Program-made: the position numbers and the translations under genes
Assembly (NCBI GenBank): GCA_041618295.1
Contig: JBFJNH010000011.1
Coordinates: 2,317-66,316 of the forward strand
DNA length: 64,000 bases
Origin: Marmoricola sp.
GTDB lineage: Bacteria > Actinomycetota > Actinomycetes > Propionibacteriales > Nocardioidaceae
Direction: 5' to 3'
Notes under the pieces: generated by a model
The model's input: only the letters and a program-made list of their open reading frames with translations
Told to the model about the DNA's origin: nothing
The model's database searches: none
In this document: piece after piece, positions 24,940 through 37,535 of the stretch
How the letters are laid out: the number at the start of each line of letters is the position of its first letter
Position numbering within the stretch: position 1 is the first letter of the stretch

Positions 24940-25332
24940 CTACCGGCGGGTGAAGACCGCCGAGCGGGTCCAGAGGTCGTGCAGCCCGCGCCCGTCCTGG
25001 CGGAAGACGAGCGGCGGGATCAGCAAGCAGACCAGGAGCTGGCGCTGGAGGGCCCGGAACAGGGTGAGCGGGCGCCCGTCGATCCCGTGCACGCCGATCC
25101 GCAGCAGCTTCTGCCCGAACGAGGCCCCGGTGAGGGCGATCCCGATCGCGGACTCGAACCAGAAGATGGCCAGGTTCAGCACCACGAAGGCCTCGTGCTG
25201 CACGTCCTGGAGGATGAAGAACGTGACGGCGTAGCTCGCCAGCCAGTCGATCACCAGCGCGGCGACGCGCTGCAGCCAGGAGGCGGTCTCGGGCACCAGC
25301 AGGTGCCCGGCGGGAGTAGTGGGTCCAGACAT
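24940..25332 (-). CDS. RDD family membrane protein
   Basis: RVAALVIDW, SFGQKLLRI, GRGLHD; divergent from glnA. Confidence 0.85.
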   Translation of the reverse strand: MSGPTTPAGHLLVPETASWLQRVAALVIDWLASYAVTFFILQDVQHEAFVVLNLAIFWFESAIGIALTGASFGQKLLRIGVHGIDGRPLTLFRALQRQLLVCLLIPPLVFRQDGRGLHDLWTRSAVFTRR

Positions 25333-25401
25333 CGCCACGACCCTACCCACCCCCGGGAAAGGGTCCGGTACCCGAGGGTGGACGTCCGGGACCTGGTACG
25401 T

Positions 25402-25428
25402 GTTACATGCCCGAAACAAACCCGATAC
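25402..25428 (+). promoter_or_regulatory. GlnR-type binding site upstream of glnA
   Basis: GTTAC-N6-GAAAC-N6-GATAC fits the Streptomyces GlnR box gTnAc-n6-GaAAc. Confidence 0.75.
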
Positions 25429-25545
25429 GGTCGATTAACCGGCTCGACCTAGCGTCGACTCGCGCCCAGGCGCGCAGTGACTCACCGTCGCGTCGCTCAC
25501 CTCACCACACTCTGATCTCGGTCGCGCTGCGACCAAGGAGGACGA

Positions 25546-26967
25546 ATGTTCCAGAACAGCGAAGAGCTCCTGAAGTTCATCAAGGACGAGGGCGTCGAGA
25601 TGATCGACGTCCGCTTCTGCGACTTGCCCGGCATCATGCAGCACTTCACCGTGCCGGCCTCGTCCTTCGACCAGTCGGTCTTCGACGACGGTCTGGGCTT
25701 CGACGGCTCCTCCATCCGCGGCTTCCAGGCCATCAACGAGTCCGACATGCAGCTGTACCCGGACCCGACGACGGCCTACCTCGACCCGTTCCGGAAGTCG
25801 AAGACGCTGAACGTGAACTTCTTCATCCACGACCCGATCACCGGTGAGGCCTACTCCCGCGACCCGCGCAACATCGCCAAGAAGGCGCTTGCCTACCTGG
25901 CCAGCACCGGCATCGCGGACACCGCGTTCTTCGCCCCCGAGGCCGAGTTCTACATCTTCGACAACGTCCGCTACTCCACCGGCGTCAACGAGGGGTACTA
26001 CCACATCGACTCCGTCGAGGGCTGGTGGAACTCGGGCAAGGAGGGCGAGGACAACCTCGGCTACAAGACCCGCCTCAAGGGTGGTTACTTCCCTGTCGAG
26101 CCGTACGACCACTACTCGGACCTGCGGGCCGACATGGTCAAGAACCTCGAGGCCTGCGGCCTGCTCGTCGAGCGCGCCCACCACGAGGTCGGCACCGCCG
26201 GCCAGGCGGAGATCAACTACCGCTTCGACACGCTGCTCAAGGCCGCGGACGACGTGATGAAGTTCAAGTACATCATCAAGAACACCGCCTGGCAGCAGGG
26301 CAAGTCGGTCACCTTCATGCCGAAGCCGATCTTCGGTGACAACGGCTCGGGCATGCACGTGCACCAGTCGCTGTGGAACGCCGGCGAGCCGCTCTTCTAC
26401 GACGAGACCGGCTACGGCGGCCTCTCGGAGATGGCCCGTCACTACATCGGCGGCATCCTGAAGCACGCCCCGGCGCTGCTGGCGTTCACCAACCCGACGG
26501 TGAACTCCTACCACCGCCTGGTGCCGGGCTTCGAGGCCCCGATCTCGCTGGTGTACTCCTCGCGCAACCGGTCGGCGTCGGTCCGGATTCCGATCACCGG
26601 CTCGAACCCGAAGGCCAAGCGCATCGAGACCCGGTTCCCGGACCCGTCCGCGAACCCGTACCTCGCCTTCTCGGCGCTGATGCTCGCCGGTCTCGACGGC
26701 ATCAAGAACAAGATCGAGCCGGCCGCTCCGATCGACAAGGACATCTACGAGCTGCCGCCGGCCGAGATGGCCGAGATCGCCCAGGTGCCGACCTCGCTCG
26801 GCGCCGTGCTGGACGCCCTCGAGGCCGACCACGACTTCCTGACGGTCGGCAACGTCTTCACGCCGGACCTGATCGAGACCTGGGTCGACTTCAAGCGCAC
26901 CCAGGAGATCGCGCCGGTGCAGCTGCGGCCGCACCCGCACGAGTTCGAGCTGTACTACGACATCTGA
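25546..26967 (+). CDS. glnA: Glutamine synthetase type I (beta)
   Basis: [46 protein letters not shown]-terminal [12 protein letters not shown]. Confidence 0.97.
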
Positions 26968-27034
26968 GTCGTGAGCTGATCGAGCTTCTTGAGCTCGACC
27001 AACCGATGGCCCCGGAGCTTCTCCGGGGCCATCG
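26952..27034 (+). repeat. Left direct repeat (attL-like): glnA 3' end plus terminator
   Basis: First 23 nt identical to 31957-31979; the whole 83/84-nt copies differ by 8 substitutions and 1 indel. Confidence 0.9.
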
Positions 27035-27041
27035 TTGTTTT
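27004..27041 (+). terminator. glnA intrinsic terminator
   Basis: 14-bp stem CGATGGCCCCGGAG / CTCCGGGGCCATCG, loop CTT, followed by TTGTTTT. Confidence 0.85.
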
Positions 27042-27058
27042 CAACCGACACCAGCGAC

Positions 27059-27330
27059 GTCATCCACGTCGAAGTCCTCATCTCCGCCCTCGGGCAGTGC
27101 CCCAGCGCCCCGCGTGGCCAATTCCCGCTGCACGCGAGACCATCGCCCGCCCGGCCTTCCACTCTGCCTGAGTGTGGCCACGACGTCGACTTCACCGGCA
27201 AGCGCGTTGCCGTGATCGGAGCCGCGCGAGCGCGATCCAGTTCGTGCCCGAGATCCAGGGACGTCGCCCAACTTTGGCGCACTTCCAACGCGCCGCGGGC
27301 CATACCCGCTGCCGCGCGGTTCGACCCCGA
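27059..27330 (+). pseudogene. Fragment of a flavin-containing (Baeyer-Villiger-type) monooxygenase
   Basis: Frameshifted pieces VLISALGQ / RPAFHSA* / HDVDFTGKRVAVIG / ASAIQFVPEIQ..FQR. Confidence 0.8.
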
Positions 27331-27427
27331 GTTCTCGCGGCTGCATCACGGCGCCTTCGGAAAGGTGCCCGCCACTGACCTAGTTGACCGAGCGTGCGCT
27401 GTGGTTGGGGTGGCTAGCTGCGGCACT

Positions 27428-28066
27428 TCAGGGAGACATCTGTCGGAAGGTTGACCCGACGCCGAGAAACAGAGCAGTGAGGTCATCGACGAGCCGGTCG
27501 CGGTCGGAATGGAGTTCGCCCGTCAATGCGGCACTCATGGTCGCGGCGAACCCTCCGAGTGCGAATCGGGTGGTGGTGATCACTGCTTGGGATTCCACGT
27601 CCTCGCCGCGCCAGACCGCCGGCGAGTAGTGGGCCAGCAGGCTGGCGAATCGATGGAGTTCCGTCGCGTACGCCGGGCCCAGGACGTGCGAATGGAGCGG
27701 CTCGACGAGCAGCACCCGACCTTTGCGCGGATCATCGAGGAGCAGGTCAATCATCGCGCTCAAGACATCGCGGACGCGCGCTGCAGTACGGCGAGGTGCC
27801 GCGAGCATGGCAGCAACAGCGCGCCGCTCGGCCTCGGCCGTAAGCATTCCGAAGACCGCGAGCTGGAGCTCATCAAGATCGCTGAAGTAGTTGTAGAAGT
27901 AGCGCGGTGCGACCCCGGAGTGACTGAGTACCTTTCGCACGGTGGGTTGGCCAAGTTGAGGGTCGCCCATCAGGTCCAGGGCGGCCTCAAGTATCCGTGA
28001 TCGACGATCCTCGTCGCGCTCGGCCGACGTCATCCCACCATATACGCGGCCCTGTGTGATGCCCAC
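27428..28066 (-). CDS. TetR-family transcriptional regulator
   Basis: RILEAALDLMG..TVRKVLSHSGVAPRYFYNYFSDLDEL HTH; LLDDPRKGRVLLVE. Confidence 0.88.
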   Translation of the reverse strand: MGITQGRVYGGMTSAERDEDRRSRILEAALDLMGDPQLGQPTVRKVLSHSGVAPRYFYNYFSDLDELQLAVFGMLTAEAERRAVAAMLAAPRRTAARVRDVLSAMIDLLLDDPRKGRVLLVEPLHSHVLGPAYATELHRFASLLAHYSPAVWRGEDVESQAVITTTRFALGGFAATMSAALTGELHSDRDRLVDDLTALFLGVGSTFRQMSP

Positions 28067-28073
28067 GACAATA

Positions 28074-28130
28074 TCTTGACACAGTCGTGTCCAGATTGCC
28101 TAAGATCATCTGAACACGACATGCGACAGA
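28074..28130. promoter_or_regulatory. Two related 22-bp palindromic operator-like sites overlapping a TTGACA/TAAGAT promoter
   Basis: TCTTGACACAGTCGTGTCCAGA (28074-28095) and TCTGAACACGACATGCGACAGA (28109-28130); TTGACA 28076, TAAGAT 28101 (19-nt spacer). Confidence 0.6.
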
Positions 28131-28140
28131 TAGGATTTCG

Positions 28141-29043
28141 ATGGCTTCGAAGAGCGGTCTCCTCGCCGGTAGCGGTGACGACATTGGTGCGCAGTTGGCG
28201 GCGGACTGGCGCATCCTGCTAGTGGCGCCAACCGCTCTCGTGCTGCAGGTTGCGCACCCGGTGATCGGCGCGGGCGTTGGCCGCTACTCCAACTACTCCA
28301 CGGATCCGTGGGGTCGTGCTGTTCGCTCCGTCTGGCCCGTGCTCGCCATGGTGATGATCGAGGACCGAGGCTATGGTGCGGACCTGCGGGCCCTCCATAA
28401 GGGGATTGGTGGCGTCGATCATCTCGGCAGGAGGTACCACGCCTGGGAGCCTGAAGCGGCATTCTTCGTGCTCGCCACGGCCTGCTACATCAGTGATCAG
28501 CTCCGGACCCTCTTCGGAACGCCGCTCACTTACGCCGAGCGCGAGGCCGTTTTCTTCGCCTGGCGGCGCGCTGGGCTGTCCTTCGGCATCCCCGAGCGCG
28601 AGCTTCCGACGGACCTCGACGCCTACGACTTGTGGTTCGCTGACGTGCTTCAAGACCGGCTCGAGGACCACCCGACGGTCCGCGAGCTGCTGGGCACTCT
28701 GCACAGCATTCCGCCGTTGCCGGGCGTACCTGGTTGGCTCTGGCGGCCGCTCGCGCGGCAGTTGATCGGCCCGGTGGCGATGCTGGTCGTCGTCGGAACC
28801 CTGCCTCCTCTGATCAGAGAACGGCTCGGCCTCACGTGGACTTCGAAGGACCAGCGTCGGCTGAACGCCTTCACCCGCCTCATGCGAGTCGTCAATGTCC
28901 TCATCCCGAGGCCGCTGCGTTCGGTGAACCGGCTTGTCGTGCGGCGCTACGAACAACAGATGAGGCAGTACGCTGCCCGGGGTGCCGAGCTGGGCATCGC
29001 GCCCTCGATCGCCTCTGACAAAGCGGGCCGTGATGTTGCCTGA
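28141..29043 (+). CDS. DUF2236 / MpaB-Lcp-like oxygenase family protein
   Basis: LVLQVAHPVIGAGV, DPWGRAVRS, LRALHKGIGG..RRYHA. Confidence 0.82.
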   Translation: MASKSGLLAGSGDDIGAQLAADWRILLVAPTALVLQVAHPVIGAGVGRYSNYSTDPWGRAVRSVWPVLAMVMIEDRGYGADLRALHKGIGGVDHLGRRYHAWEPEAAFFVLATACYISDQLRTLFGTPLTYAEREAVFFAWRRAGLSFGIPERELPTDLDAYDLWFADVLQDRLEDHPTVRELLGTLHSIPPLPGVPGWLWRPLARQLIGPVAMLVVVGTLPPLIRERLGLTWTSKDQRRLNAFTRLMRVVNVLIPRPLRSVNRLVVRRYEQQMRQYAARGAELGIAPSIASDKAGRDVA

Positions 29044-29530
29044 TGCGGCTGACCTGAGTCCGCACCATGACGCGTGCTACGTCTGCGGCCCCGGAAACCC
29101 GGCTGCGACCGGGTTGAGCCTGCGTTCCGCGGGCGGGGGAATCATTGGTGAGGTCGTGCTGGACGTTCGGCACCAGGGCGTGCCCGGACTCGCCCATGGG
29201 GGTGCGATTGCCGCACTCATGGACGAGGTGTCCGGGTCGCTTCTCATTGCGGCCGGCCTTCGTTTCGTCACCGCCCAACTCGACGTCACCTACGTCGCGC
29301 CCGTCGCCATCGGCCGGCCTCTGGTGCTCCGGGCGTGGCTCGCCGGCAGTGCGGGCCGCAAGCACACAGCGAAGGCCGAGCTTCGAGAAGGTGGACTGTT
29401 GCTCGCCGAGGCGACCGGCTTGTTCCTGACAGTCTCGCCTGATCACTTCATCGCAGCCGGGGCATCCAGCGGGGGTTCGTCCGTGTTCGGCGCCGATCAC
29501 CCCACCGGACAGGCGACAGGTTCACGGTGA
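29033..29530 (+). CDS. PaaI/hotdog-fold thioesterase
   Basis: CYVCGPGNP, HQGVPGLAHGGAIAALMDE, TAQLDVTY; overlaps the upstream gene. Confidence 0.85.
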   Translation: MLPDAADLSPHHDACYVCGPGNPAATGLSLRSAGGGIIGEVVLDVRHQGVPGLAHGGAIAALMDEVSGSLLIAAGLRFVTAQLDVTYVAPVAIGRPLVLRAWLAGSAGRKHTAKAELREGGLLLAEATGLFLTVSPDHFIAAGASSGGSSVFGADHPTGQATGSR

Positions 29531-31584
29531 CGGCTGACATCACTCGAGGGGCGTGGCCGCAGGGTTCACCGCTTCCGCCACCGATCCTGATCGAGGCCGA
29601 GTCGCGGACCGTGCGCCGCGGCGTACCGGACCCCCGGATTCCCTTGCCCCGCGTGGCCTGGCCGACCATCGGCCTGTTCTTCGCCGGAGCGGCTGTCTGG
29701 GTCGTAGGAGCCTGGCTCTTCCTCGCCGAGGGCGTGACGGCCTGGTTGACGGTTCCTGTCCTGGCTGTCGTCTCCTTCGCTCAGTTCACCGTGCTCCATG
29801 AGTGCGTGCACCACGCAGCGGGCCGCCTGACCTGGGTCAACGAGGTCTTCGGACGCATGTCGGTGGTGTTCTTCGGTGCGGCAGGAACCTTTGCGGGGTT
29901 CCGCTTCCTGCATATCGAGCACCACCGGCACACAAACGAAGCGATGGACATCGACCCCGACATGTGGGTCAGCCACGGCCCGAAGTGGCAACTCCCAGCC
30001 CGCTGGGCGCTGCTCGACGTCGGCTACATGTTCTTCTACTTCAAGCGGATCAAGTCACGACCGACCAAGGAACAGGTCGAGGTGTGGGGCACTTTGGCTG
30101 CCTTCAGCGCCGCCACCCTCGGATGCATCGCCGCCGGCTGGGGATGGGAGTTCATGGCGCTGGTCTGGCTGCCGCAGCGCCTGGGGATGACCCTGATCAC
30201 CTACTGGTTCGGCTGGCTTCCCCATCACGACCTCAACACCACGGCCGCGGAGGACAACTTCCGGACGACCAGGACGCGGGTTGGCATGGAGTGGCTGCTC
30301 ACGCCGGTACTGCTCTACCAGAACTACCACTCGGTTCATCACCTACACCCATCCATACCGTTCTACCGCTACATCGACGCCTGGAAACGCAACGAGGGTG
30401 TCTACCTCGATGCCAACGTCCCGCTGGCCACCGTCTGGGGTCGCGAGCTAACCAGGAGCGAGTACGTCGCGTGGCGCGGACTCGCCGAGCCATGCTCCTC
30501 GGCGATGGCGCGCGAACCGGGCGTCGCGATCGGCCCGGGCGGGTTTCACCCGTTGACCGTCTCGGAGGTCCGGCCGCTGACACCAGATGCCGTTTCGATC
30601 ACCTTCGATATCCCGGACCATCTGCGGGAGGACTTCAGGTTCGTTGCCGGCCAGCACGTGGTGGTCCGCCACGACCTCGACGGTCAGGAACTGCGGCGCA
30701 CCTATTCGATCTGTAGCTCGGCCTCATCGGGCGTCATCCGGATCGGCGTACGCCGTCTCCCGGAGGGCCGGATGTCGGGGTTCCTCAACTCGATAGAACC
30801 CGGCCAACTGCTCGAGGTCTCGACGCCACGTGGCCGGTTCACCCTCGACCCGGAGCCGGGCGCTCGTCAGCACTACGTCGGCATCGCGGCCGGCAGTGGC
30901 ATCACGCCGCTGATCTCAATGCTCGCCACCGCCCTGTCACAGCAGGAGCACAGCCGCTTCACCCTGCTGTACGGCAACCGGTCTACCGAATCGACGATGT
31001 TCCGTGACGAGCTTGCGATGCTGGTGCGCCAGTTCGAGGGTCGGCTGGAGGTCGTGGATTTCCGTGACAACGAGGACGTCATCGACGACGGTATTCAGCC
31101 CGGGAGGATCACGACTGACTACCTCCGTAGTCGCCTTCACACCGATCTCGCATCAGAGCAGGTCGACGGGTGGTACCTCTGTGGCCCCGAACCGCTCGTG
31201 CGCGCCGTCAAGGAAGTCCTGGCCGAGTCCGGAGCAGCACCTGGGACGGTCCACAGCGAGCTGTTCTCAGCCGCAGCCGCGGCCACCAAGGTGGCCGATG
31301 ACGTCATGGCGTGCACCCTCACAGCCAGGCTTGGTGGCGCGGAAGTCACCATCAACGCGAAGCCCGGTCAGACGGTGCTGGCCGCGCTACTCGACAACGC
31401 CGTGCCCGCGCCGTACTCCTGCATGGGCGGTGCGTGCGGGACCTGCCGAGCACACATCATCCGCGGGGATGCAGTCATGGACCAGAACCACGCACTCGAA
31501 GACCCCGACATCGCAAGCGGCTACATCCTCACCTGTCAGGCCCGCCCTCGTACGTCGGCCCTGGAGGTGGACTACGACGCCTGA
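29527..31584 (+). CDS. Membrane di-iron desaturase/hydroxylase fused to FAD/NAD(P)H reductase and [2Fe-2S] ferredoxin
   Basis: His boxes HECVHH, HIEHHRH, HSVHH; RTYSI, AAGSGITP, YLCGP; CMGGACGTC..C. Confidence 0.88.
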   Translation: MTADITRGAWPQGSPLPPPILIEAESRTVRRGVPDPRIPLPRVAWPTIGLFFAGAAVWVVGAWLFLAEGVTAWLTVPVLAVVSFAQFTVLHECVHHAAGRLTWVNEVFGRMSVVFFGAAGTFAGFRFLHIEHHRHTNEAMDIDPDMWVSHGPKWQLPARWALLDVGYMFFYFKRIKSRPTKEQVEVWGTLAAFSAATLGCIAAGWGWEFMALVWLPQRLGMTLITYWFGWLPHHDLNTTAAEDNFRTTRTRVGMEWLLTPVLLYQNYHSVHHLHPSIPFYRYIDAWKRNEGVYLDANVPLATVWGRELTRSEYVAWRGLAEPCSSAMAREPGVAIGPGGFHPLTVSEVRPLTPDAVSITFDIPDHLREDFRFVAGQHVVVRHDLDGQELRRTYSICSSASSGVIRIGVRRLPEGRMSGFLNSIEPGQLLEVSTPRGRFTLDPEPGARQHYVGIAAGSGITPLISMLATALSQQEHSRFTLLYGNRSTESTMFRDELAMLVRQFEGRLEVVDFRDNEDVIDDGIQPGRITTDYLRSRLHTDLASEQVDGWYLCGPEPLVRAVKEVLAESGAAPGTVHSELFSAAAAATKVADDVMACTLTARLGGAEVTINAKPGQTVLAALLDNAVPAPYSCMGGACGTCRAHIIRGDAVMDQNHALEDPDIASGYILTCQARPRTSALEVDYDA

Positions 31585-31956
31585 CGCCTCATGTCGGCGC
31601 GTGGCCTCGGTCGGGTCCGCGGCGACGACGGCGATGGCGATGCGGTGGCGACGGCGGATCAGAAGCTCCGTAGAGCCCAAAGAATCTGGTTCTCCTGGTT
31701 TCTGGACGCCGCGCCTCCAGTCCCCGTTCGCACCGATCTGATCCGCGGCGTCGGAGCTGGTGTCGGCCCAACCTTCGAGCCCGAACAGACAACGTTCACC
31801 CGGGCGCCGGCGTCTATAGAGCGGCCGGAATCTTGACAGATCGAGGCGGGTCGCCCGGCAATAGGCGGGTGACGCACCGGGTAGCCTGCTACGAGCCCGG
31901 TACAAACAGCCGGCAATCCTCGACGTTTGCGCAGGTCACCATGGGTCGGTCAGTCA

Positions 31957-32040
31957 GTACTACGACATCTGAGTCGTGAACTGATCGAGTTCCACCTGCT
32001 CGACCAACCGATGGCCCCGGAGATTCTCCCGGGGCCATCG
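31957..32040 (+). repeat. Right direct repeat (attR-like): second copy of glnA tail (YYDI*) and terminator hairpin
   Basis: GTACTACGACATCTGAGTCGTGA..CGATGGCCCCGGAGATTCTCCCGGGGCCATCG. Confidence 0.9.
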
Positions 32041-32103
32041 GCATGTCACGGCCACTCCCCTGACCTCGAGCCGCTGAGAACGTGCGTCTGGTACAACTCG
32101 TCG

Positions 32104-33702
32104 ATGAGGTTCCAGCGCACCGCCGCCCTGCTCGCGCTCGCCCTGCTCCTCTGGGCCCTCGGTCCGCTCGTGCTGGTCGTCGCCGTGCTGGCTCTCCGCT
32201 TCCCGCGGGTACGGCGCTGGGTGCGGCCGACCTGGCGCGTCGTGGCGGCCTGGTCCGGGGCGGTCGCCGTCCTGGTCGGGGCGGTGGTTCTCGTCCCCGA
32301 CGGCTACCTGCCGATCCCGCCGGGTTCCGGCGCCCTGGTGACCCCGGGCTACGTCGGCAGCCCGGCGATCCCCGACCCGATCGATCTTGAGGTACCGCAG
32401 CACCCGCGCCTGGCCAGCAACGGCAGCAGCTCGATGCACAACGACGGCTGGGCCTCCGACGCCTATGCCGGGCCGGGCCCGCTCGGCGAGTCACCCGAGG
32501 TCGACACCGCCTGGTACGGCCTCGAGGAGTGCGCGACGATCGCCTTCGACTCCCAGCAGCGGCTCATCGCCCTGTGCGGCACCATCTCCGGGCCGGTGAT
32601 GCACGTGCTCGACCCCGAGACGATGCGTGCCCGGGACACCCTCGAGCTGCCCGAGCGCCGCGACACCGGAAACGGCAAGAAGCCGTGGGAGGATCTCTGC
32701 GGCGGCGCCTACTTCTTCCTCGACGACCGGGACCGCGCCATCACGGCCACCACCGAGCGCAGCATCGTCGCGGTCGCCACCGCTGGCGACCAGGGTGAGC
32801 CCGACCTCACCGTCCAGTCGACGTACGACCTCAGCGAGCACGTGCCCGAGAACGACTGCTTGATCGCGCTGATGCCCGACTGGGAGGGCCGGATCTGGTA
32901 CGAGACCGAGGACGGCCGGGTCGGGTTCGTCGACCCCGGCAACGGTCGCACCACCGTGCTCGACCTCGGCGAGGAGATCGCCAACTCGTTCTCGGTCGGC
33001 GCCGACAGCGGCGTCTACGTCGTCACCGTCAACGCCCTCTACAAGCTCGGCGTCGATGCTGCCGACCGGCCCACGGTCACCTGGCGCACCCCCTACGACC
33101 GCGGCACCGGCACCAAGCCCGGGCAGCTCAGCCGCGGCAGCGGTACGACGCCGACGCTGATGCCCGGCGGCTTGGTGGCGATCACCGACAACGCGGAACC
33201 GCGGATGAACGTGCAGTTCTACGAGACCGACGACGGCAGCCTGGTCTGCCAGCGCGCCGTCTTCGAGAACGGCGCGAGCGCAACCGAGAACTCGCTGGTC
33301 GCGGTGGGGGACGGCGTCGTGGTCGAGAACAACGCCGGCTACGACGGTCCGTTGCGGACGATGTTCGGACACGTCACCGAGGGCGGCTTCGCACGCGTGG
33401 ACGTGGCTGGCGGGACGTGCGAGCTCGTCTGGACCTCCTCCGAGGTGGCGCCGACGTCGGTCGCGAAGGTGTCGCTGGAGACCGGTCTCGTCTACGCCTA
33501 CACCAAGCGGAAGAGCTGGCTCGGGGTCAACGCCTGGTACTTCACCGCGATCGACGCCCGCACCGGTCGTACGGCGTTCTCGGTGCGCACCGGGCTCGGC
33601 ACGCTCTTCAACAACCACTACGCCGCGGTGACCCTAGCCCCGGACGGTTCGGCGTACGTCGCCACCCTGGCCGGCATGGTCCGGGTGCGCGACCGGGACT
33701 GA
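32104..33702 (+). CDS. Membrane-anchored hypothetical protein, probably beta-propeller-like
   Basis: N-terminal TM helices then repeated beta-rich blocks (PDWEGRIWY, GSGTTPTL, AITDNA, NNHYAAVTL). Confidence 0.65.
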   Translation: MRFQRTAALLALALLLWALGPLVLVVAVLALRFPRVRRWVRPTWRVVAAWSGAVAVLVGAVVLVPDGYLPIPPGSGALVTPGYVGSPAIPDPIDLEVPQHPRLASNGSSSMHNDGWASDAYAGPGPLGESPEVDTAWYGLEECATIAFDSQQRLIALCGTISGPVMHVLDPETMRARDTLELPERRDTGNGKKPWEDLCGGAYFFLDDRDRAITATTERSIVAVATAGDQGEPDLTVQSTYDLSEHVPENDCLIALMPDWEGRIWYETEDGRVGFVDPGNGRTTVLDLGEEIANSFSVGADSGVYVVTVNALYKLGVDAADRPTVTWRTPYDRGTGTKPGQLSRGSGTTPTLMPGGLVAITDNAEPRMNVQFYETDDGSLVCQRAVFENGASATENSLVAVGDGVVVENNAGYDGPLRTMFGHVTEGGFARVDVAGGTCELVWTSSEVAPTSVAKVSLETGLVYAYTKRKSWLGVNAWYFTAIDARTGRTAFSVRTGLGTLFNNHYAAVTLAPDGSAYVATLAGMVRVRDRD

Positions 33703-33789
33703 CGTCGCCCGTCGTGCCCGCCGGGACGTGATGGTCGCGACCTGCCCCTAGCGGGGTACCGTGGTCCGGTTCATCATCGAGGGAGCAGC

Positions 33790-34194
33790 ATGAGCGAAGC
33801 AGCACACGTGGGCGACGACGCCTGGGCGGAGGTCGGGCGGTCGACGTACGTGTCGTTCACGAGCTACCGCAAGAACGGGGCGCCGGTCTCGACCCCGGTC
33901 TGGATCGCTCCCGACGGCGATGACCTCTACTTCTTCTCGGACACCGGCGCCTTCAAGGTCACCCGGGTTCGGAACAACCCGGCCGTGACCCTGCAACCCT
34001 GCGACGTCCGTGGCCGCGTCAAGGAGGGCTCCCCGGTGGTCTCCGGGGTGGCCGAGGTGCTCAAGCACTCCGACAGCCCTCGGGTACGCCGCATCGTCAA
34101 CCGGAAGTACCGCGTGCAGGGAACCATCGGCACCCTGTTCAGCCGTCTGCGCGGTGCCGATGCGTCCGTCGGGATCCGGATCCGGCGAGCCTAG
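33790..34194 (+). CDS. PPOX-class F420-dependent oxidoreductase
   Basis: YVSFTSYRKNGAPVSTPVW, KVTRVRNNPAVTLQPCDVRG. Confidence 0.85.
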   Translation: MSEAAHVGDDAWAEVGRSTYVSFTSYRKNGAPVSTPVWIAPDGDDLYFFSDTGAFKVTRVRNNPAVTLQPCDVRGRVKEGSPVVSGVAEVLKHSDSPRVRRIVNRKYRVQGTIGTLFSRLRGADASVGIRIRRA

Positions 34195-34216
34195 ACACTC
34201 CGAGGTTCTTCGTCGC

Positions 34217-35632
34217 TCAGGCTCGTGCCGACGGCGCCAGTCCGCTCGCACGTCCCGGACCAGCGCCCGGCCGGTCGGTCCGGTGCAACGGGATCCGCGC
34301 CTCGAAGGTGGTCCCGTGGGGCTCCGCAGGCATCGCTCGGATGCTGCCGCCGTGACCCTCGACGATCGACTTGGTGATCGCCAGGCCCAGCCCGGTTCCT
34401 GCGATCCCCGCCTTGGCCGCGGTCGAGGCCCGGTAGTAGGTCTCGAAGATCTGGTCGATCTGGTCCGCAGGGATCCCGATGCCGGTGTCACTGACCCGGA
34501 GAACCGCGTCCACGCCGTCCGCCCGGACCTCGACGCTGACCGCACCACCCGCCGGGGTGAACTTGATCGCGTTGCCCAGCAGGTTGTCCACGACCTGGCG
34601 GAGCCGGTCGGCGTCCCCGCGGATCGGCGCAGCCGAACAGCGTGCGGTGAGCTCGAGCGTCGCCCGCTGGGCCCGCTCGGAAGCAGCCTCGACGGCATCG
34701 CCGACGATGCCCGAGAGATCGACGTCGGCCGCGTCAACCAGCGCGCTCGGTGAGGCCCCGCGACCGAGGTCACCGACGAGCCGCTGCACCTGGCGCGCCC
34801 GGTCCCGGATCACCGTCGCCTGCCGGCGGACCTCGGCGGGAACCTCGTCACTCTCGGCGATCACGTCGGCGTACCAATCGATCACCGTGATCGGGTTGAC
34901 CAGGTCGTGGCTGACCATCGCCAGGAAGTCCTCCCGCGAACGCTCCAGCTCTCCGAGCACCAGCACCTGACGCTGCTCCTCGGCCAACAGCTCGGCCCGG
35001 GTACGGGCGAGCTCGGTCGCGACGGCAGCATCCCGGCCGACGCGACGGTGCTCGCGGATCAGCTTGCGCATCGTCCAGCCGACGATCGCCAGGGCCAGAC
35101 CGAACGCCGCGGGCAGCACCCAGCGCAGCCGGGTGACGAGCTCGATCTCGGTGCGGGTGGCCTCGGCGAGCTCCACCCGGTGGCCGGAGACCGCGGCGCC
35201 CAGAAGTCGTTGGATCGAATCCAGAGCCGGACCCGCTACCCGGTCGTCGACCCCCACGACCGGGGAGTCCAGGGTCGAGCGGACCTGGTCGACGTACCGC
35301 TGGTTGAGGAGCTTCAAGCTCGCCAGCGTCGGCCCGTCACGCCGGTCGGTGGCCGTGTACGCGTCCTCCAGCGCACGGTCCACGTCCGCGATCGCAGCCT
35401 CCAGGCGCACCCGGGCTTCCGGGCCCGGGGCGCGCCGGTAGCCGGCCTCGGCAGCAGCCTCCGCCGCGACCGCACTGAGCACGCCGCTGTAGGCGATCAC
35501 AGCTTCCCTGGTGTTCAGGGTCTCCCGCTGCGCCTGCCGGATCGAGTCCAGGGCCGACCACGACATGACGGCGAGAGCGAGCAGGACGATGCCGAGGACC
35601 ACCGACGCGAGCAACGACGTACGCGTCCGCAT
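34217..35632 (-). CDS. Membrane sensor histidine kinase with extracytoplasmic helical domain
   Basis: Two TM helices, VSHDLVNP, NLLGNAIKF, DTGIGI, GTGLGL. Confidence 0.85.
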   Translation of the reverse strand: MRTRTSLLASVVLGIVLLALAVMSWSALDSIRQAQRETLNTREAVIAYSGVLSAVAAEAAAEAGYRRAPGPEARVRLEAAIADVDRALEDAYTATDRRDGPTLASLKLLNQRYVDQVRSTLDSPVVGVDDRVAGPALDSIQRLLGAAVSGHRVELAEATRTEIELVTRLRWVLPAAFGLALAIVGWTMRKLIREHRRVGRDAAVATELARTRAELLAEEQRQVLVLGELERSREDFLAMVSHDLVNPITVIDWYADVIAESDEVPAEVRRQATVIRDRARQVQRLVGDLGRGASPSALVDAADVDLSGIVGDAVEAASERAQRATLELTARCSAAPIRGDADRLRQVVDNLLGNAIKFTPAGGAVSVEVRADGVDAVLRVSDTGIGIPADQIDQIFETYYRASTAAKAGIAGTGLGLAITKSIVEGHGGSIRAMPAEPHGTTFEARIPLHRTDRPGAGPGRASGLAPSARA

Positions 35633-35697
35633 GGTGCCGCCTTCCCGGTTGCCTCGTTCGTGGACCAGGTGCCTCCCCAACATGGCACATTTGGGTC

Positions 35698-37038
35698 ATG
35701 ATCGGCATAAATCGCCTCGCCCTGAGCCGTCCGCGGCCCCTGGTCGCCGTTGCCGTCCTCGCCGCAACGGTCAGCCCGCTCCTCGCCGGGTGCGGCGGCT
35801 CCGAGCCGGACACCGACTCCGTCCGCACCGTCACCGTGTGGCGCCACGCCGGTACCGATGCCGAGTCCCGGGCGTTCACCGCTCAGGTCCGCGACTTCAA
35901 CACCGCGCACCCGGACATCCGGGTCGAGGTCACGACGATCCCGGAGGGCGACTACAACGACGAACTCCAGGCGGCGGCCGCCGGCCGTCAGCTGCCCGAC
36001 ATCGCCGAGATCGACGGCCCGCTGGTGGACAGCTACGTCTACCAGGAGCAGCTCGCCGTCCTCGACGACCTCCTGCCAGAGGCGACGCTGGCCGCCCAGC
36101 TCCCCTCGCTGCGCACCCAGGGCACCGTCGACGGCCGCACCTACGCCGTCGGCGTCTTCGACTCCGGCCTCGGCCTGTACGCCGACCGCCGTCAGCTCCG
36201 GGCCGCCGGGATCACGTCCTGGCCGACGACCCCCGCCGAAGCGTGGACCAGCGACGAGTTCCAGGAGGTCCTGCGCAAGCTCGCCGCACGCGACCAGGAC
36301 GGCAAGGTGCTCGACCTCAAGCTCAACTACGGGGTCGGCGAGTGGCTCACCTACGGGTTCGCTCCCCTGGTGGCCTCGACCGGCGGCGACCTGATCGACC
36401 GGAGCACGCTGAGCCCGGTGGGCCACCTCGACGGTCAAGCGGTGACGACGACCCTCCGAACCCTCGCCGGCTGGGCGCCGTACGTCGACCCCAACACCGC
36501 CGACGACGCCTTCACCTCCCGGAACGTCGCCCTGTCCTGGGTCGGTCACTGGGTCTACAACGACTACACCACCGCCCTCGGGACCGACCTCTTGGTGCTC
36601 CCGCTTCCGGACCTCGGCCGGGGGTCGAAGTCCGGACAGGGCAGCTGGGCCTGGGCCGTCACCCGGCAGGCCGAGAACCCCGACGACGCGGCCGTGTTCC
36701 TCGACTACCTGCTCAGCACCCGCCAGGTCCTCCGGATGACGAACGCCAACGGTGCCGTCCCGGGGACCCAGGACGCGCTCGCCGAGTCCCGGCTCTACGG
36801 ACCGGGCAGCCCGCTGCGCCTGTTCGCCGACCAGCTCCTGGCCAGCTGCGAGGACGACGCACCTTCCCCGAACTGCGTCACCGTCCCCCGGCCCGCGACA
36901 CCCGCCTACCCGACCCTGAGCGCCCAGTTCGCCCTCGCCGTCTCCCGGGCGCTGACCGGCGGCGACTGGCAGGGCGCCCTGAGCACAGGCACCGCACGCG
37001 TCCAGGCCGACCTGGACGCCAACGACGGGTACCGCTGA
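35698..37038 (+). CDS. Sugar-type ABC substrate-binding lipoprotein (solo)
   Basis: Lipobox LAGC, FNTAHPDIRVE, QLPDIAEIDG, VALSWVGHW. Confidence 0.8.
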   Translation: MIGINRLALSRPRPLVAVAVLAATVSPLLAGCGGSEPDTDSVRTVTVWRHAGTDAESRAFTAQVRDFNTAHPDIRVEVTTIPEGDYNDELQAAAAGRQLPDIAEIDGPLVDSYVYQEQLAVLDDLLPEATLAAQLPSLRTQGTVDGRTYAVGVFDSGLGLYADRRQLRAAGITSWPTTPAEAWTSDEFQEVLRKLAARDQDGKVLDLKLNYGVGEWLTYGFAPLVASTGGDLIDRSTLSPVGHLDGQAVTTTLRTLAGWAPYVDPNTADDAFTSRNVALSWVGHWVYNDYTTALGTDLLVLPLPDLGRGSKSGQGSWAWAVTRQAENPDDAAVFLDYLLSTRQVLRMTNANGAVPGTQDALAESRLYGPGSPLRLFADQLLASCEDDAPSPNCVTVPRPATPAYPTLSAQFALAVSRALTGGDWQGALSTGTARVQADLDANDGYR

Positions 37039-37064
37039 GTCTGCGGGTTCCCCGGCCCCGCTCG

Positions 37065-37535
37065 CTAATCCGCGCCCGGGAACCCGTGCTGGCGCCAAGC
37101 CTCGTAGGTCACCACCGCGGCGGAGTTCGCGAGGTTCAGCGACCGCCTGCCGGCCAGCATCGGGATCCGCAGCCGCTCGGTGACCCGGGGGTGCTCCAGG
37201 ACGTTGTCGGGAAGCCCGGTCGGCTCGGGCCCGAAGAGCAGGACGTCGCCGGGAACGAACGCCACCTCGGTGTACCAGCGGGTCGCCCGTGCGGTGAACG
37301 CGAAGACCCGGGAGTCAGCCAGCGCCGGAGCGCTCAGCGCCGCCTCGAGATCCGGGTGCACCACCATCGAGGCCAGGTCGTGGTAGTCCAGCCCGGCGCG
37401 CTTCAGCTTCGGTTCGGAGAGGTCGAAGCCGAGCGGCTCGACCAGATGCAGAGTCACCCCGGTCCCGGCCGCCAACCGGATCGCGTTCCCGGTGTTGGGC
37501 GGGATCCGGGGCTCGAGGAACATCACGTGGAACAC
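37065..37535 (-). CDS. trmL: tRNA (cytidine/uridine-2'-O)-methyltransferase
   Basis: PRIPPNTGNAIRL, LLFGPEPTGL, RSLNLANSAAVVTYEAWRQ. Confidence 0.92.
   Translation of the reverse strand: MFHVMFLEPRIPPNTGNAIRLAAGTGVTLHLVEPLGFDLSEPKLKRAGLDYHDLASMVVHPDLEAALSAPALADSRVFAFTARATRWYTEVAFVPGDVLLFGPEPTGLPDNVLEHPRVTERLRIPMLAGRRSLNLANSAAVVTYEAWRQHGFPGAD

Follow-up and report, generated by a model that had tools for sequence, protein, structure and literature searches.

A probable non-autonomous genomic island at the 3' end of glnA in a Marmoricola genome

Results

Gene content of the glnA locus

The window analysed here is the whole 64,000-nt stretch of a Marmoricola sp. contig. It carries an intact glnA and, directly behind it, an islet of 4.9 kb (27035-31956) with a copy of the glnA tail at either side. 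The features of the locus were as follows (positions in the window).

25546-26967, + strand: glnA, type I glutamine synthetase of 473 aa, the intact target gene (Pfam Gln-synt_C 4e-136, Gln-synt_N 1.5e-29)
26952-27035, + strand: repeat on the putative attL side (copy 1), with core TACTACGACATCTGA at 26953-26967 (the end of glnA), UTR hairpin 1 at 26980-26998, terminator hairpin at 27004-27034 and a T tract
27095-27400, + strand: pseudogene of an FMO-like, Baeyer-Villiger-type flavin monooxygenase with the motif DVDFTGKRVAVIG (blastn, translation)
27428-28066, - strand: tentative TetR-like regulator in divergent orientation to the cargo operon (TetR_N match at E = 3e-4, short of the Pfam threshold; GC3 0.71)
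28141-29043, + strand: MpaB/Lcp-type (DUF2236) oxygenase (PF09995, E = 1e-51)
28982-29530, + strand: hotdog-fold (4HBT) thioesterase (PF03061, E = 1.4e-9)
29527-31584, + strand: fusion of a membrane fatty-acid desaturase, an FNR-type reductase and a 2Fe-2S ferredoxin, 685 aa (FA_desaturase, FAD_binding_6, NAD_binding_1, Fer2)
31876-31957, + strand: conserved "a2" P arm of the putative attR, with TACAA-type repeats and the motif GTTTGCGCAGGTCA at 31925-31938, 19 nt before the core and tail
31957-32040, + strand: repeat on the putative attR side (copy 2), the displaced glnA tail with core at 31958-31972, hairpin 1 at 31985-32003 and terminator hairpin at 32008-32040, without the T tract

The glnA gene was 81-93% identical to the single glnA of genus relatives and 94% identical to glnA of Nocardioides kongjuensis. 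The first-pass annotation had described a duplication of glnA tail, spacer and terminator, and our comparison of the two copies agreed with it in every detail: they start 5005 nt apart, and their first 23 nt, GTACTACGACATCTGAGTCGTGA, which include the last 16 nt of glnA, are identical, whereas the rest differs by 8 substitutions and 1 indel. The loop of UTR hairpin 1 and its immediate flanks hold six of the substitutions, and the other differences listed, 1 substitution and the indel, are in the terminator loop. Overall identity was 88%, with perfect blocks of 23 and 25 nt inside the 84-nt duplication, and folding predicted the same two hairpins in both copies (z = -6.3 and -6.0). The duplicated sequence was found just twice in the 3.67-Mb genome, so it is not a dispersed repeat, and its 24-nt invariant block was expected 0.00 times in shuffled sequence. 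Copy 2 was nearer to the native UTRs of the relatives G007 (contig C5), G023, G093 and G044, with 77, 73, 70 and 69 matches versus 72, 65, 65 and 67 for copy 1, and the likeness runs past the hairpin for copy 2 but ends with the hairpin for copy 1. From sequence likeness, copy 1 is read as the island-borne copy (P' side) and copy 2 as the original chromosomal copy (B' side).

The islet had also been described as AT-rich and as starting with a pseudogene. The shift in composition is real but modest: GC was 0.657 versus 0.701 genome-wide, which is within the lowest 4.3% of 4.9-kb windows, and GC3 was 0.71-0.82 in the islet genes versus 0.90-0.96 in neighbouring genes. The pseudogene (approximately 27095-27400) is a frameshifted internal fragment of a flavin monooxygenase, which shared 72-86% identity with 8 paralogous loci of the same genome in blastn and aligned at E = 3e-7 to the paralog on contig C10, itself PF00743 FMO-like. 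The full-length desaturase fusion was absent from all 40 relatives compared and was seen only in the window's genome (G000), which also has a 47% paralog on contig C23. Together, the TetR-like regulator, the MpaB-type oxygenase, the thioesterase and the self-sufficient desaturase look like a cassette for the oxidation of lipids or acyl chains, and their composition is foreign.

Pfam showed regulator and enzyme genes only in the islet, with no integration or conjugation genes, and relaxase, coupling-protein and mating-pore genes were all missing. The absence of an integrase, noted at first sight, held for the tyrosine type in searches with Pfam and with phmmer using 12 diverse tyrosine integrases (26900-32100); for transposases and serine recombinases, Pfam on the called ORFs, the sole search covering these, gave no match in the islet. 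The single PF00239 match of the window's genome is on a different contig. No integrase adjoins glnA in this genome or in that of G014, and a close relative of the island-borne integrases described below was not found in the window's genome, where the best match had 36% identity.

Integrase-bearing elements at the same site

The first-pass annotation had proposed a search for other glnA-tail islands with an integrase, and such islands, named a1 here, were found in G022, G005, G082, G103 and N. kongjuensis. In the last of these, a conjugative element of approximately 61 kb stands behind glnA; it carries a TrwC relaxase, a TraG/VirD4-type coupling protein and Tad genes and ends in Xis and Int, after which come the motif and the displaced native tail TACTACGACCTGTAG. 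The G022 island (16.7 kb) carries Wadjet-like genes, an HTH_17 protein and Int, and has the same Xis-Int end as the N. kongjuensis element, with Xis and Int 37 nt from the displaced tail. In G005 and G082 a convergent Int adjoins glnA, and Janibacter sp. Y6 has an Int 91% identical to that of G022, followed by the same motif and tail.

An island-borne tail has taken the place of the original last codon and stop codon of glnA in both G022 and N. kongjuensis; glnA of G022 now ends in ATC TGA, and its displaced tail retains ATA TAG. Only CTACTACGAC(AT) was identical at both junctions of these two elements, so the crossover lies within those 10-12 nt. An a1 element evidently supplies the final codon, the stop codon and the terminator of glnA.

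The glnA end in the genus

Displaced glnA tails were searched with TACTACGACATHTRR in 103 genomes, with no match for the reversed control. The scan gave 23 displaced tails in 19 of the 103 genomes, to which G014 is added with a variant tail. Nine genomes carry a pair of tails at a distance of 2.2-25 kb on the same contig and strand. The closest relative, G014, shows three tails with two a2 islands in tandem, and at many glnA ends (e.g., G019, G116) there are small islets with only toxin-antitoxin remnants. Empty sites were also seen, as had been suggested for a check: in G007 (contig C5), G023, G093 and G044, glnA has just one tail, with a UTR of the same type behind it. The displaced tails mark the glnA end as a recurrent attachment site in this genus.

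The gene at 32104 had been supposed to follow glnA directly at an empty site, but it is no ancestral neighbour of glnA, because synteny with relatives downstream of glnA starts only at approximately 37550. The DNA beyond copy 2 (32104-37386) is likewise non-syntenic, so a single insertion does not account for the whole history of the locus. The motif CTGACCTGCG is part of the hairpin directly after glnA in some relatives, e.g., G083, so the motif alone does not prove an occupied site.

The conserved a2 arm

The arm of approximately 80 nt at the right end of the islet has relatives of 87-89% identity over 81-99 nt in G022 (contig C15), G062 (contig C273), G118 and G014 (two sites). Between these sites the boundaries of homology vary by no more than 14 nt, and each site has different cargo next to it. 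Exact matches to a 45-nt pattern, 36 nt from the end of the a2 arm plus 9 nt from the start of the core, were found in 18 metagenome contigs. In G022, N. kongjuensis and Janibacter, the motif of the a2 arm also stands beside Int, at a distance of 18 nt from the displaced tail; the a1 and a2 ends have only the core and this 14-nt motif (GTTTxCGCAGGTCA) in common, and the arms are otherwise different.

Searches with 12 queries gave no tyrosine integrase in the a2 contexts examined, and not even a fragment of one in the two fully covered G014 islands. The Resolvase-domain search (PF00239) in 12 genomes, with G014, G062 and G118 not among them, gave no serine recombinase within the islands that it covered. 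Sometimes a2 islands stand in tandem arrays, and in G062b and the metagenome contig L146 an a2 arm and core are followed by an a1 left end. Simple folding of the a2 arm gave no attC-like symmetric hairpin. Since a2 sites are also present in genomes without any a1-type Int (the window's genome and G014), most a2 copies may be fossils. The left junction of the islet has no P' motif of the TGACCTGCG type that a1 elements carry and borders directly on the truncated pseudogene, so it could be a scar of deletion or illegitimate joining and not a functional attL.

Discussion

The islet is probably a non-autonomous, att-flanked, CIME-like genomic island that was placed at the glnA 3' end by site-specific recombination of a tyrosine integrase. 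Integration at this att site had been proposed from the window alone, and it is now supported by the empty sites, the integrase-bearing glnA-tail islands and the lack of a dispersed repeat. The window shows flanking direct repeats, a full-length glnA with an island-borne tail and sporadic presence, as in integrative islands, and its islet lacks an integrase of its own by the att site. As in CIMEs, candidate attL and attR are kept, integration and conjugation genes are absent, and a related ICE uses the same site; accretion beside a CIME-like island was seen in relatives and in the metagenome but not in the window's own genome.

The attP of such an a2 island would consist of the arm, the core and a copy of the glnA 3'UTR with its terminator. 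After integration, the island-borne copy 1 would terminate glnA, and the native copy 2 would be pushed 5 kb downstream. Integration and excision would need Int, and probably Xis, in trans from a co-resident a1-type element; that a1 Int acts on a2 arms is suggested only by the shared core and motif and by the two accretion junctions. The islet is presumably stranded at present, since nothing close to the island-borne integrase is encoded in its genome, and its left cargo appears to be decaying already, judged by the monooxygenase pseudogene. The islet had been called either decayed or mobilised in trans. The same arm beside unrelated cargo, with no tyrosine integrase detected in any further instance examined, favours a non-autonomous family.

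Alternatively, a complete a1-like ICE or island at glnA could have lost Int, Xis and its left end on the spot and never have been mobilised in trans, so that the arm is a chance survivor. The monooxygenase pseudogene right at the left junction, the genome without a close integrase relative and the many small glnA islets with toxin-antitoxin remnants only (G019, G116) are what such a wreck would leave, but independent deletions would not spare the same arm of approximately 80 nt, with boundaries within 14 nt, beside different cargo in the window's genome, at two sites in G014, in G022 C15, G062 and G118 and on metagenome contigs. Nor does the stretch of TACAA repeats that precedes the motif in a2 derive from int, because the int stop codon of a1 elements lies 5 nt from the motif, and both fully covered G014 islands are free of tyrosine-integrase fragments. 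We regard this history as unlikely.

Entry driven by homology, with no integrase at all, would explain other aspects of the repeat. Circular or linear DNA carrying the glnA tail and terminator of a related strain could have entered by a RecA single crossover (Campbell type) or by homology-facilitated illegitimate recombination in the 84-nt homology, which would duplicate the segment. The duplication of 84 nt at 88% far exceeds the 10-12-nt identity of a1 elements, it holds two perfect blocks (23 and 25 nt), the left junction with its truncated gene looks illegitimate, and G113 and G014 also repeat the tail and part of their own UTR type. However, perfect blocks of this size are poor RecA substrates, and on its left side the repeat begins no more than one base away from the core edge of the integrase elements (TACTAC, which in the window has one further shared G in front of it). 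Homologous recombination is also not expected to leave, directly left of the repeat, an a2 arm with an integrase-associated motif at a spacing of 19 nt, versus 18 nt beside Int. We consider such an entry quite improbable for the islet, but this route may have been the first source of the element's UTR copy. Artefact or chance, be it a chimeric assembly, the relic of a second glnA gene or a dispersed terminator repeat, is hardly credible: the assembly is a draft of 147 contigs, but the islet sits within a contig of 67.7 kb, a collapsed repeat would not show the 9 differences between the copies, the sequence upstream of copy 2 has no resemblance to glutamine synthetase, the genome has two copies only, and the same architecture occurs in approximately 20 other genomes and 18 metagenome contigs.

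The non-autonomous island favoured here belongs to a known kind of mobile DNA. CIMEs and ICE-CIME accretion have been defined (PMC6323972, PMC8369830), with Streptococcus thermophilus CIMEs and Streptomyces scabiei TR1 (CIME) with TR2 (ICE) as examples. Like the islet, CIMEs are att-flanked, have no integration or transfer genes and share their att site with related ICEs, and like the glnA islands of relatives they form tandem arrays and island-plus-ICE junctions. In contrast to CIMEs, the left att side of the islet is a copy of the target 3'UTR and terminator instead of a short repeat, and the a2 arm is unlike the ICE (a1) arm outside the 14-nt motif, so that use of an ICE integrase is conjectural. 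An ICE proper differs further in its relaxase, coupling and mating-pore genes, which the islet lacks and of which the N. kongjuensis element has TrwC and TraG/VirD4. Classical tyrosine-integrase islands at 3' ends of tRNA, tmRNA or protein genes (Islander/TIGER logic, PMC4383910) likewise restore the split target, mark their far end with a displaced fragment, are sporadically distributed and have foreign composition, but the window's island encodes no integrase.

The first-pass annotation did not know glnA as a common target, but it has already been reported as attB in Bacillus. SPbeta-like Bacillus prophages of the Lzh-a42 type insert at the glnA 3' end with a tyrosine integrase, and B. subtilis 168 has a degenerate remnant beside glnA (bioRxiv 10.1101/2021.11.22.469490). 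The two systems share the gene and its end, an intact glnA, a tyrosine integrase and decayed remnants at the site, and their duplications are 106 bp in the prophages versus 84 nt in the window. The former are phages of Firmicutes, whereas the latter are ICEs, defence islands and cargo-only islands of Actinobacteria, and the use of glnA in both is probably convergent use of a conserved gene end.

We also consider, tentatively, that a2 islands may be dedicated recombinase-less cargo modules, each with an arm-plus-core site of approximately 90 nt and its own glnA 3'UTR and terminator, which are arrayed behind glnA and moved by Int/Xis of unrelated-looking ICEs; this is possible but doubtful. Like integron cassettes, a2 units have no recombinase and a conserved end site, form head-to-tail arrays at one chromosomal site and would take their integrase from elsewhere. 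Unlike integrons, there is no IntI-type integrase or attI by the array and no attC-like fold, and a2 units are multi-gene units of 5-18 kb with their own regulators, so the likeness is one of logic only. If true, this would mean that Nocardioidaceae have an integron-like platform for gene capture, with an essential gene of nitrogen metabolism as its anchor.

For the window, integration of an island accounts for the displaced second terminator of glnA, and the landing site explains the foreign lipid-oxidation cassette behind it. The a2 arm marks islands without a detected tyrosine integrase, whose cargo is metabolic, metal-resistance or regulatory, and it could serve as a simple sequence tag for delimiting islands in these genomes and MAGs. 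The system also offers a candidate Int/att pair for site-specific engineering of high-GC actinobacteria and a tractable case in which to ask how non-autonomous islands borrow an ICE recombinase. The last 10-15 nt of glnA are a heavily used att site in Nocardioides/Marmoricola-type actinobacteria, with a displaced tail in about one-fifth of the genomes, and its users include a conjugative element of approximately 61 kb, a Wadjet defence island and small cargo-only islands. The islet is one among many cargo islands, most of them without an integrase of their own, at the glnA site in Nocardioides-like bacteria.

Duplication of the glnA tail

Recomputation agreed exactly with the first-pass annotation on the duplicated glnA tail: the final 16 nt of glnA and the next 68 nt recur 5005 nt downstream, the initial 23 nt of the two copies are identical, and the remainder carries 8 substitutions and 1 indel, with most of the differences in hairpin loops. 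Folding gave both copies a small hairpin and, after it, a GC-rich terminator hairpin of 13-14 bp (z = -6.3 and -6.0 vs shuffles), and a T tract is found 3' of copy 1 only. The 24-nt invariant block of the repeat had an expectation of 0.00 in shuffles. The repeat occurs just twice in the whole 3.67-Mb genome, so a dispersed repeat or terminator family, a refuting case that the annotation had itself raised, was rejected. No similarity to a remnant of a second glnA was found 5' of copy 2, where the sequence is occupied by the a2 arm described below, and no known RNA family was detected in 25000-34000 at E <= 1.

Features of the glnA locus (window positions)
25546-26967, + strand: glnA, with Gln-synt_N and Gln-synt_C domains
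26952-27035, + strand: repeat copy 1
about 27095-27400: frameshifted internal fragment of an FMO-like/Baeyer-Villiger-type monooxygenase (paralogue alignment)
27428-28066, - strand: TetR-like regulator (weak match, Pfam)
28141-29043: MpaB/Lcp-type oxygenase (Pfam)
28982-29530: 4HBT thioesterase (Pfam)
29527-31584: fusion of fatty-acid desaturase, FNR-type reductase and 2Fe-2S ferredoxin, 685 aa (Pfam)
31876-31957: a2 arm, about 80 nt, directly 5' of copy 2
31957-32040, + strand: repeat copy 2

The glnA 3'UTR (26968-27034 and 31973-32040 in the window, and in the relatives G007 contig C5, G023, G093 and G044) is a conserved two-hairpin unit that varies mainly in the loops. The small RNA GlnZ of E. 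coli derives from the glnA 3'UTR of that species (bioRxiv 10.1101/2022.04.01.486790). The displaced copy 2 of the UTR would be without a promoter.

Contents and composition of the islet

The islet, that is, the DNA between the two copies (27035-31956), had been described as looking more AT-rich, headed by a pseudogene and devoid of a visible integrase or transposase ORF, and these points were borne out, the first to a modest degree and the third for tyrosine integrases. Its GC content was 65.7% vs 70.1% for the genome, within the lowest 4.3% of equal-sized windows, and GC3 was 0.71-0.82 for the islet genes vs 0.90-0.96 for the neighbouring genes. The monooxygenase fragment at its start resembles 8 paralogous loci of the genome at the DNA level, one of which is a PF00743 member to which the fragment aligns with E = 3e-7; this pseudogene shows decay of the islet at its left edge. 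Pfam searches found no integrase, relaxase or transposase in the islet, phmmer with 12 diverse tyrosine integrases as queries gave no match in 26900-32100, and tblastn at E <= 10 found no integrase remnant in 31585-31956 or 27035-27430, where very permissive tblastx returned noise only.

The cassette looks like one for lipid or acyl-chain oxidation, and its desaturase fusion is presumably a self-sufficient acyl desaturase, by analogy with the mycobacterial DesA3/Rv3230c pair. The full-length fusion was missing from all 40 of the 40 relatives searched, and the sole match in species genomes was 37% identical (Amycolatopsis sacchari), so that no donor of the cargo could be named. A paralogue of the fusion with 47% identity lies elsewhere in the same genome (contig C23:6345-8276). 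The end of the fusion gene (31570-31584, GACTACGACGCCTGA) matches the att core TACTACGACATCTGA at 12/15 positions, which is probably a coincidence, as chance alone would give about 0.4 matches of this kind in 30 kb.

The glnA tail as an attachment site in the genus

The glnA tail is a busy attachment site in the genus. A search of 103 genomes with the pattern TACTACGACATHTRR returned 77 tails joined to glnA and, in 19 genomes, 23 displaced tails (copies of the glnA end that lie apart from glnA), and the reversed control gave 0 matches. Nine genomes had two tails on one contig and strand.

Distance between two tails on one contig and strand
G000 (this genome): 5.0 kb
G019: 2.2 kb
G116: 2.2 kb
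G113: 3.4 kb
G105: 7.7 kb
G085: 10.8 kb
G107: 14.7 kb (two units)
G022: 16.7 kb
G024: 25.2 kb

No two islands had the same cargo, which included toxin-antitoxin remnants, a two-component system, transporters and acyl-CoA enzymes. Islands with an integrase (a1 elements), for which a search had been proposed, were present in G022, Nocardioides kongjuensis, G005 and G082. The G022 island contained a Wadjet-like set (DUF2397, DUF2398, SbcC-like protein, DUF2399/DUF3323), an IS element, an HTH_17 excisionase-like gene and a 388-aa tyrosine integrase; 37 nt, with the motif GTTTCCGCAGGTCA among them, separate the stop codon of this integrase from the displaced tail. In G022 glnA now ends in ATC TGA and the displaced tail retains ATA TAG, and therefore the element provides the final codon, stop and terminator. 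In G005 and G082 a different Int lies convergent, directly after glnA.

Proteins at least 90% identical to the G022 Int occur in N. kongjuensis, Marmoricola MAGs and Janibacter sp. Y6, and the Janibacter gene is followed 3' by the same motif and tail. The order of the N. kongjuensis element, reconstructed by walking contigs, starts with glnA (94% identical to that of the window) and attL with TGACCTGCG motifs, continues with restriction, methylase and helicase genes, TrwC relaxase, Tad/T2SS genes, Prim-Pol, ParB, NlpC/P60, a TraG/VirD4-type coupling protein, ArdC and SSB, and ends with Xis, Int, the motif, the displaced native tail TACTACGACCTGTAG and then thiC. The whole is an ICE of about 61 kb. 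It swaps the native glnA end ...GAC CTG TAG for ...GAC ATC TGA (L056:4845-4960, L046:11160-11275), which changes the C-terminal residue of GlnA from Leu to Ile. The identity common to its junctions is CTACTACGAC only, and therefore the crossover lies within those 10 nt.

The motif GTTTCCGCAGGTCA was also seen outside the window in the Marmoricola genome, at C5:40190, C7:75692 and C2:100924, the last with a displaced tRNA 3' fragment 15 nt away and a tyrosine integrase (C2:113865-114809) at a distance of about 13 kb. It seems to belong in general to the att arms of an integrase clade whose target specificities differ.

A third element family (displaced tails of G019, G060, G110 and G116; L012, L029, L075 and L118) repeats a longer piece of glnA, GTGTTCGAGCTCTACTACGACATCT..., and has a GC stem around CTGCGGAAACGCAG at its left end; the two whole units seen (G019 and G116, about 2.2 kb each) carry toxin-antitoxin or nuclease genes (HigA-like, HepT, GIY-YIG).

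Empty sites in relatives

At 13 same-genus loci glnA and its upstream genes were conserved, and similarity stopped at the stop codon or the terminator. The empty site had been expected as glnA directly followed by the gene at 32104, and this form failed, since that gene never adjoins glnA in relatives; the search itself succeeded, since four relatives (G007 C5, G023, G093 and G044) have a single tail with the window's UTR type and are empty sites. Their UTRs are nearer to copy 2 than to copy 1, and the similarity extends past the hairpin for copy 2 and ends at the hairpin end for copy 1, which argues that copy 2 is the native 3' end and that copy 1 arrived with the island. No identical glnA protein, which could have given a same-species empty site, is on record in other assemblies. 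G007 carries a second glnA: its two genes show 91% and 82% identity to that of the window, and the extra one lies on the short contig C2 (17 kb) and is followed by a left end of the small-islet type; this could reflect mixed strains in the assembly or a second copy.

The genes in 32104-37386 (a 532-aa protein without Pfam match, a small ORF, a 488-aa gene on the - strand and a 489-aa gene) did not occur near glnA in any relative examined, and in the close relative G085 synteny came back only at about 37550. No third, degenerate tail bounding this stretch was found at <= 3 mismatches; it could be a rearrangement, or an older island whose ends have eroded.

A family of islands with a conserved arm

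The a2 arm, which marks the family of the window's islet, is 87-89% identical to the sequence that immediately precedes displaced tails in G022 (C15), G062 (C273), G118 and two G014 sites, with homology boundaries <= 14 nt apart among sites. It contains GTTTGCGCAGGTCA at 31925-31938, 5' of copy 2 and 19 nt before the core. A 45-nt pattern that straddles the junction of arm and core, with 36 nt from the end of the arm and 9 nt from the start of the core, had exact matches in 18 metagenome contigs. The neighbours of the arm are unrelated at each site: P450, ferredoxin and AraC; MMPL and P450; arsenic resistance; Mrp antiporter, copper oxidase, cytochrome bd and NicO; and the lipid cassette in the window. 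No tyrosine integrase was found in any of these a2 contexts, including the two complete G014 islands and as much as 13 kb 5' of the arm in metagenome contigs, and no serine recombinase (Resolvase domain) inside the islands examined in 12 genomes other than G014, G062 and G118.

G014, the closest relative by glnA, holds two tandem a2 islands (17.9 and 10.5 kb) with a variant core, which ruled it out as an empty site, and its three tail copies each carry about 25 nt of its own UTR type. The long repeat including the UTR, present in G014 as well as in the window, thus seems to be characteristic of a2 islands and not an accident of this islet. In G113, too, the tail is repeated together with that genome's own terminator type. 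In G062b and in the metagenome contig L146, an a2 arm and core are followed at once by an a1 left end, the arrangement expected from ICE accretion beside a CIME (cis-mobilizable element). In the single-contig genome G118, an a2 arm and glnA tail (C1:1171644-1171726) lie about 1 Mb from glnA (C1:135943) in opposite orientation, which points to a secondary attachment site or to a large inversion, one endpoint of which would fall in the island region.

Proposed mechanism and alternatives

The mechanism that we propose starts from the observed site, a1 crossover position, conserved a2 arm and arrays, with no detectable tyrosine integrase. The circle of an a2 island would consist of arm, core, UTR copy and cargo, and it would integrate by Int-mediated exchange within the core, so that the island's own UTR and terminator stay behind glnA and the native UTR is displaced. 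Int, and probably Xis too, would be supplied by a co-resident a1-type element. The element may originally have acquired the UTR copy by an imprecise event, in a host of the same UTR type, and have carried it ever since. The closest Int to the a1 type in the Marmoricola genome has 36% identity at most, and therefore the window's islet is probably now stranded.

Decay in situ of a full integrative element is a simple explanation that agrees with the pseudogene, but it does not fit a repeated, sharply bounded arm beside different cargo. RecA-mediated Campbell insertion via the 84-nt homology could account for the long repeat, but it leaves unaccounted for the arm and the motif, which stand at the core's left edge at integrase-type spacing (19 vs 18 nt). 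An artefact is very unlikely, since the copies differ at nine positions, the islet lies inside a 67.7-kb contig and parallel cases are numerous. The interpretation first given to the locus, with the glnA 3' end as the integration site of the islet, gains support from the empty sites, the other islands and the a2 arm.

Relation to known systems

There is precedent for glnA as attB: in Bacillus, SPbeta-like prophages that encode a tyrosine integrase insert at the 3' end of glnA, which stays intact, with a duplication of 106 bp, and a degenerate remnant persists at this site in B. subtilis 168 (bioRxiv 10.1101/2021.11.22.469490). Literature text searches found no published account of glnA-tail islands in Actinobacteria, which is absence of evidence only. 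CIMEs are defined by loss of integration and transfer genes with attL and attR kept (PMC6323972), and TR1 of Streptomyces scabiei, with the ICE TR2, is an actinobacterial example (PMC8369830). The islet has the structural features of this class, and we regard it as a probable CIME-like island. That the a2 islands form a dedicated trans-mobilised cassette system is a tentative and rather unlikely extension of this reading, and if it were true, the finding would gain interest.
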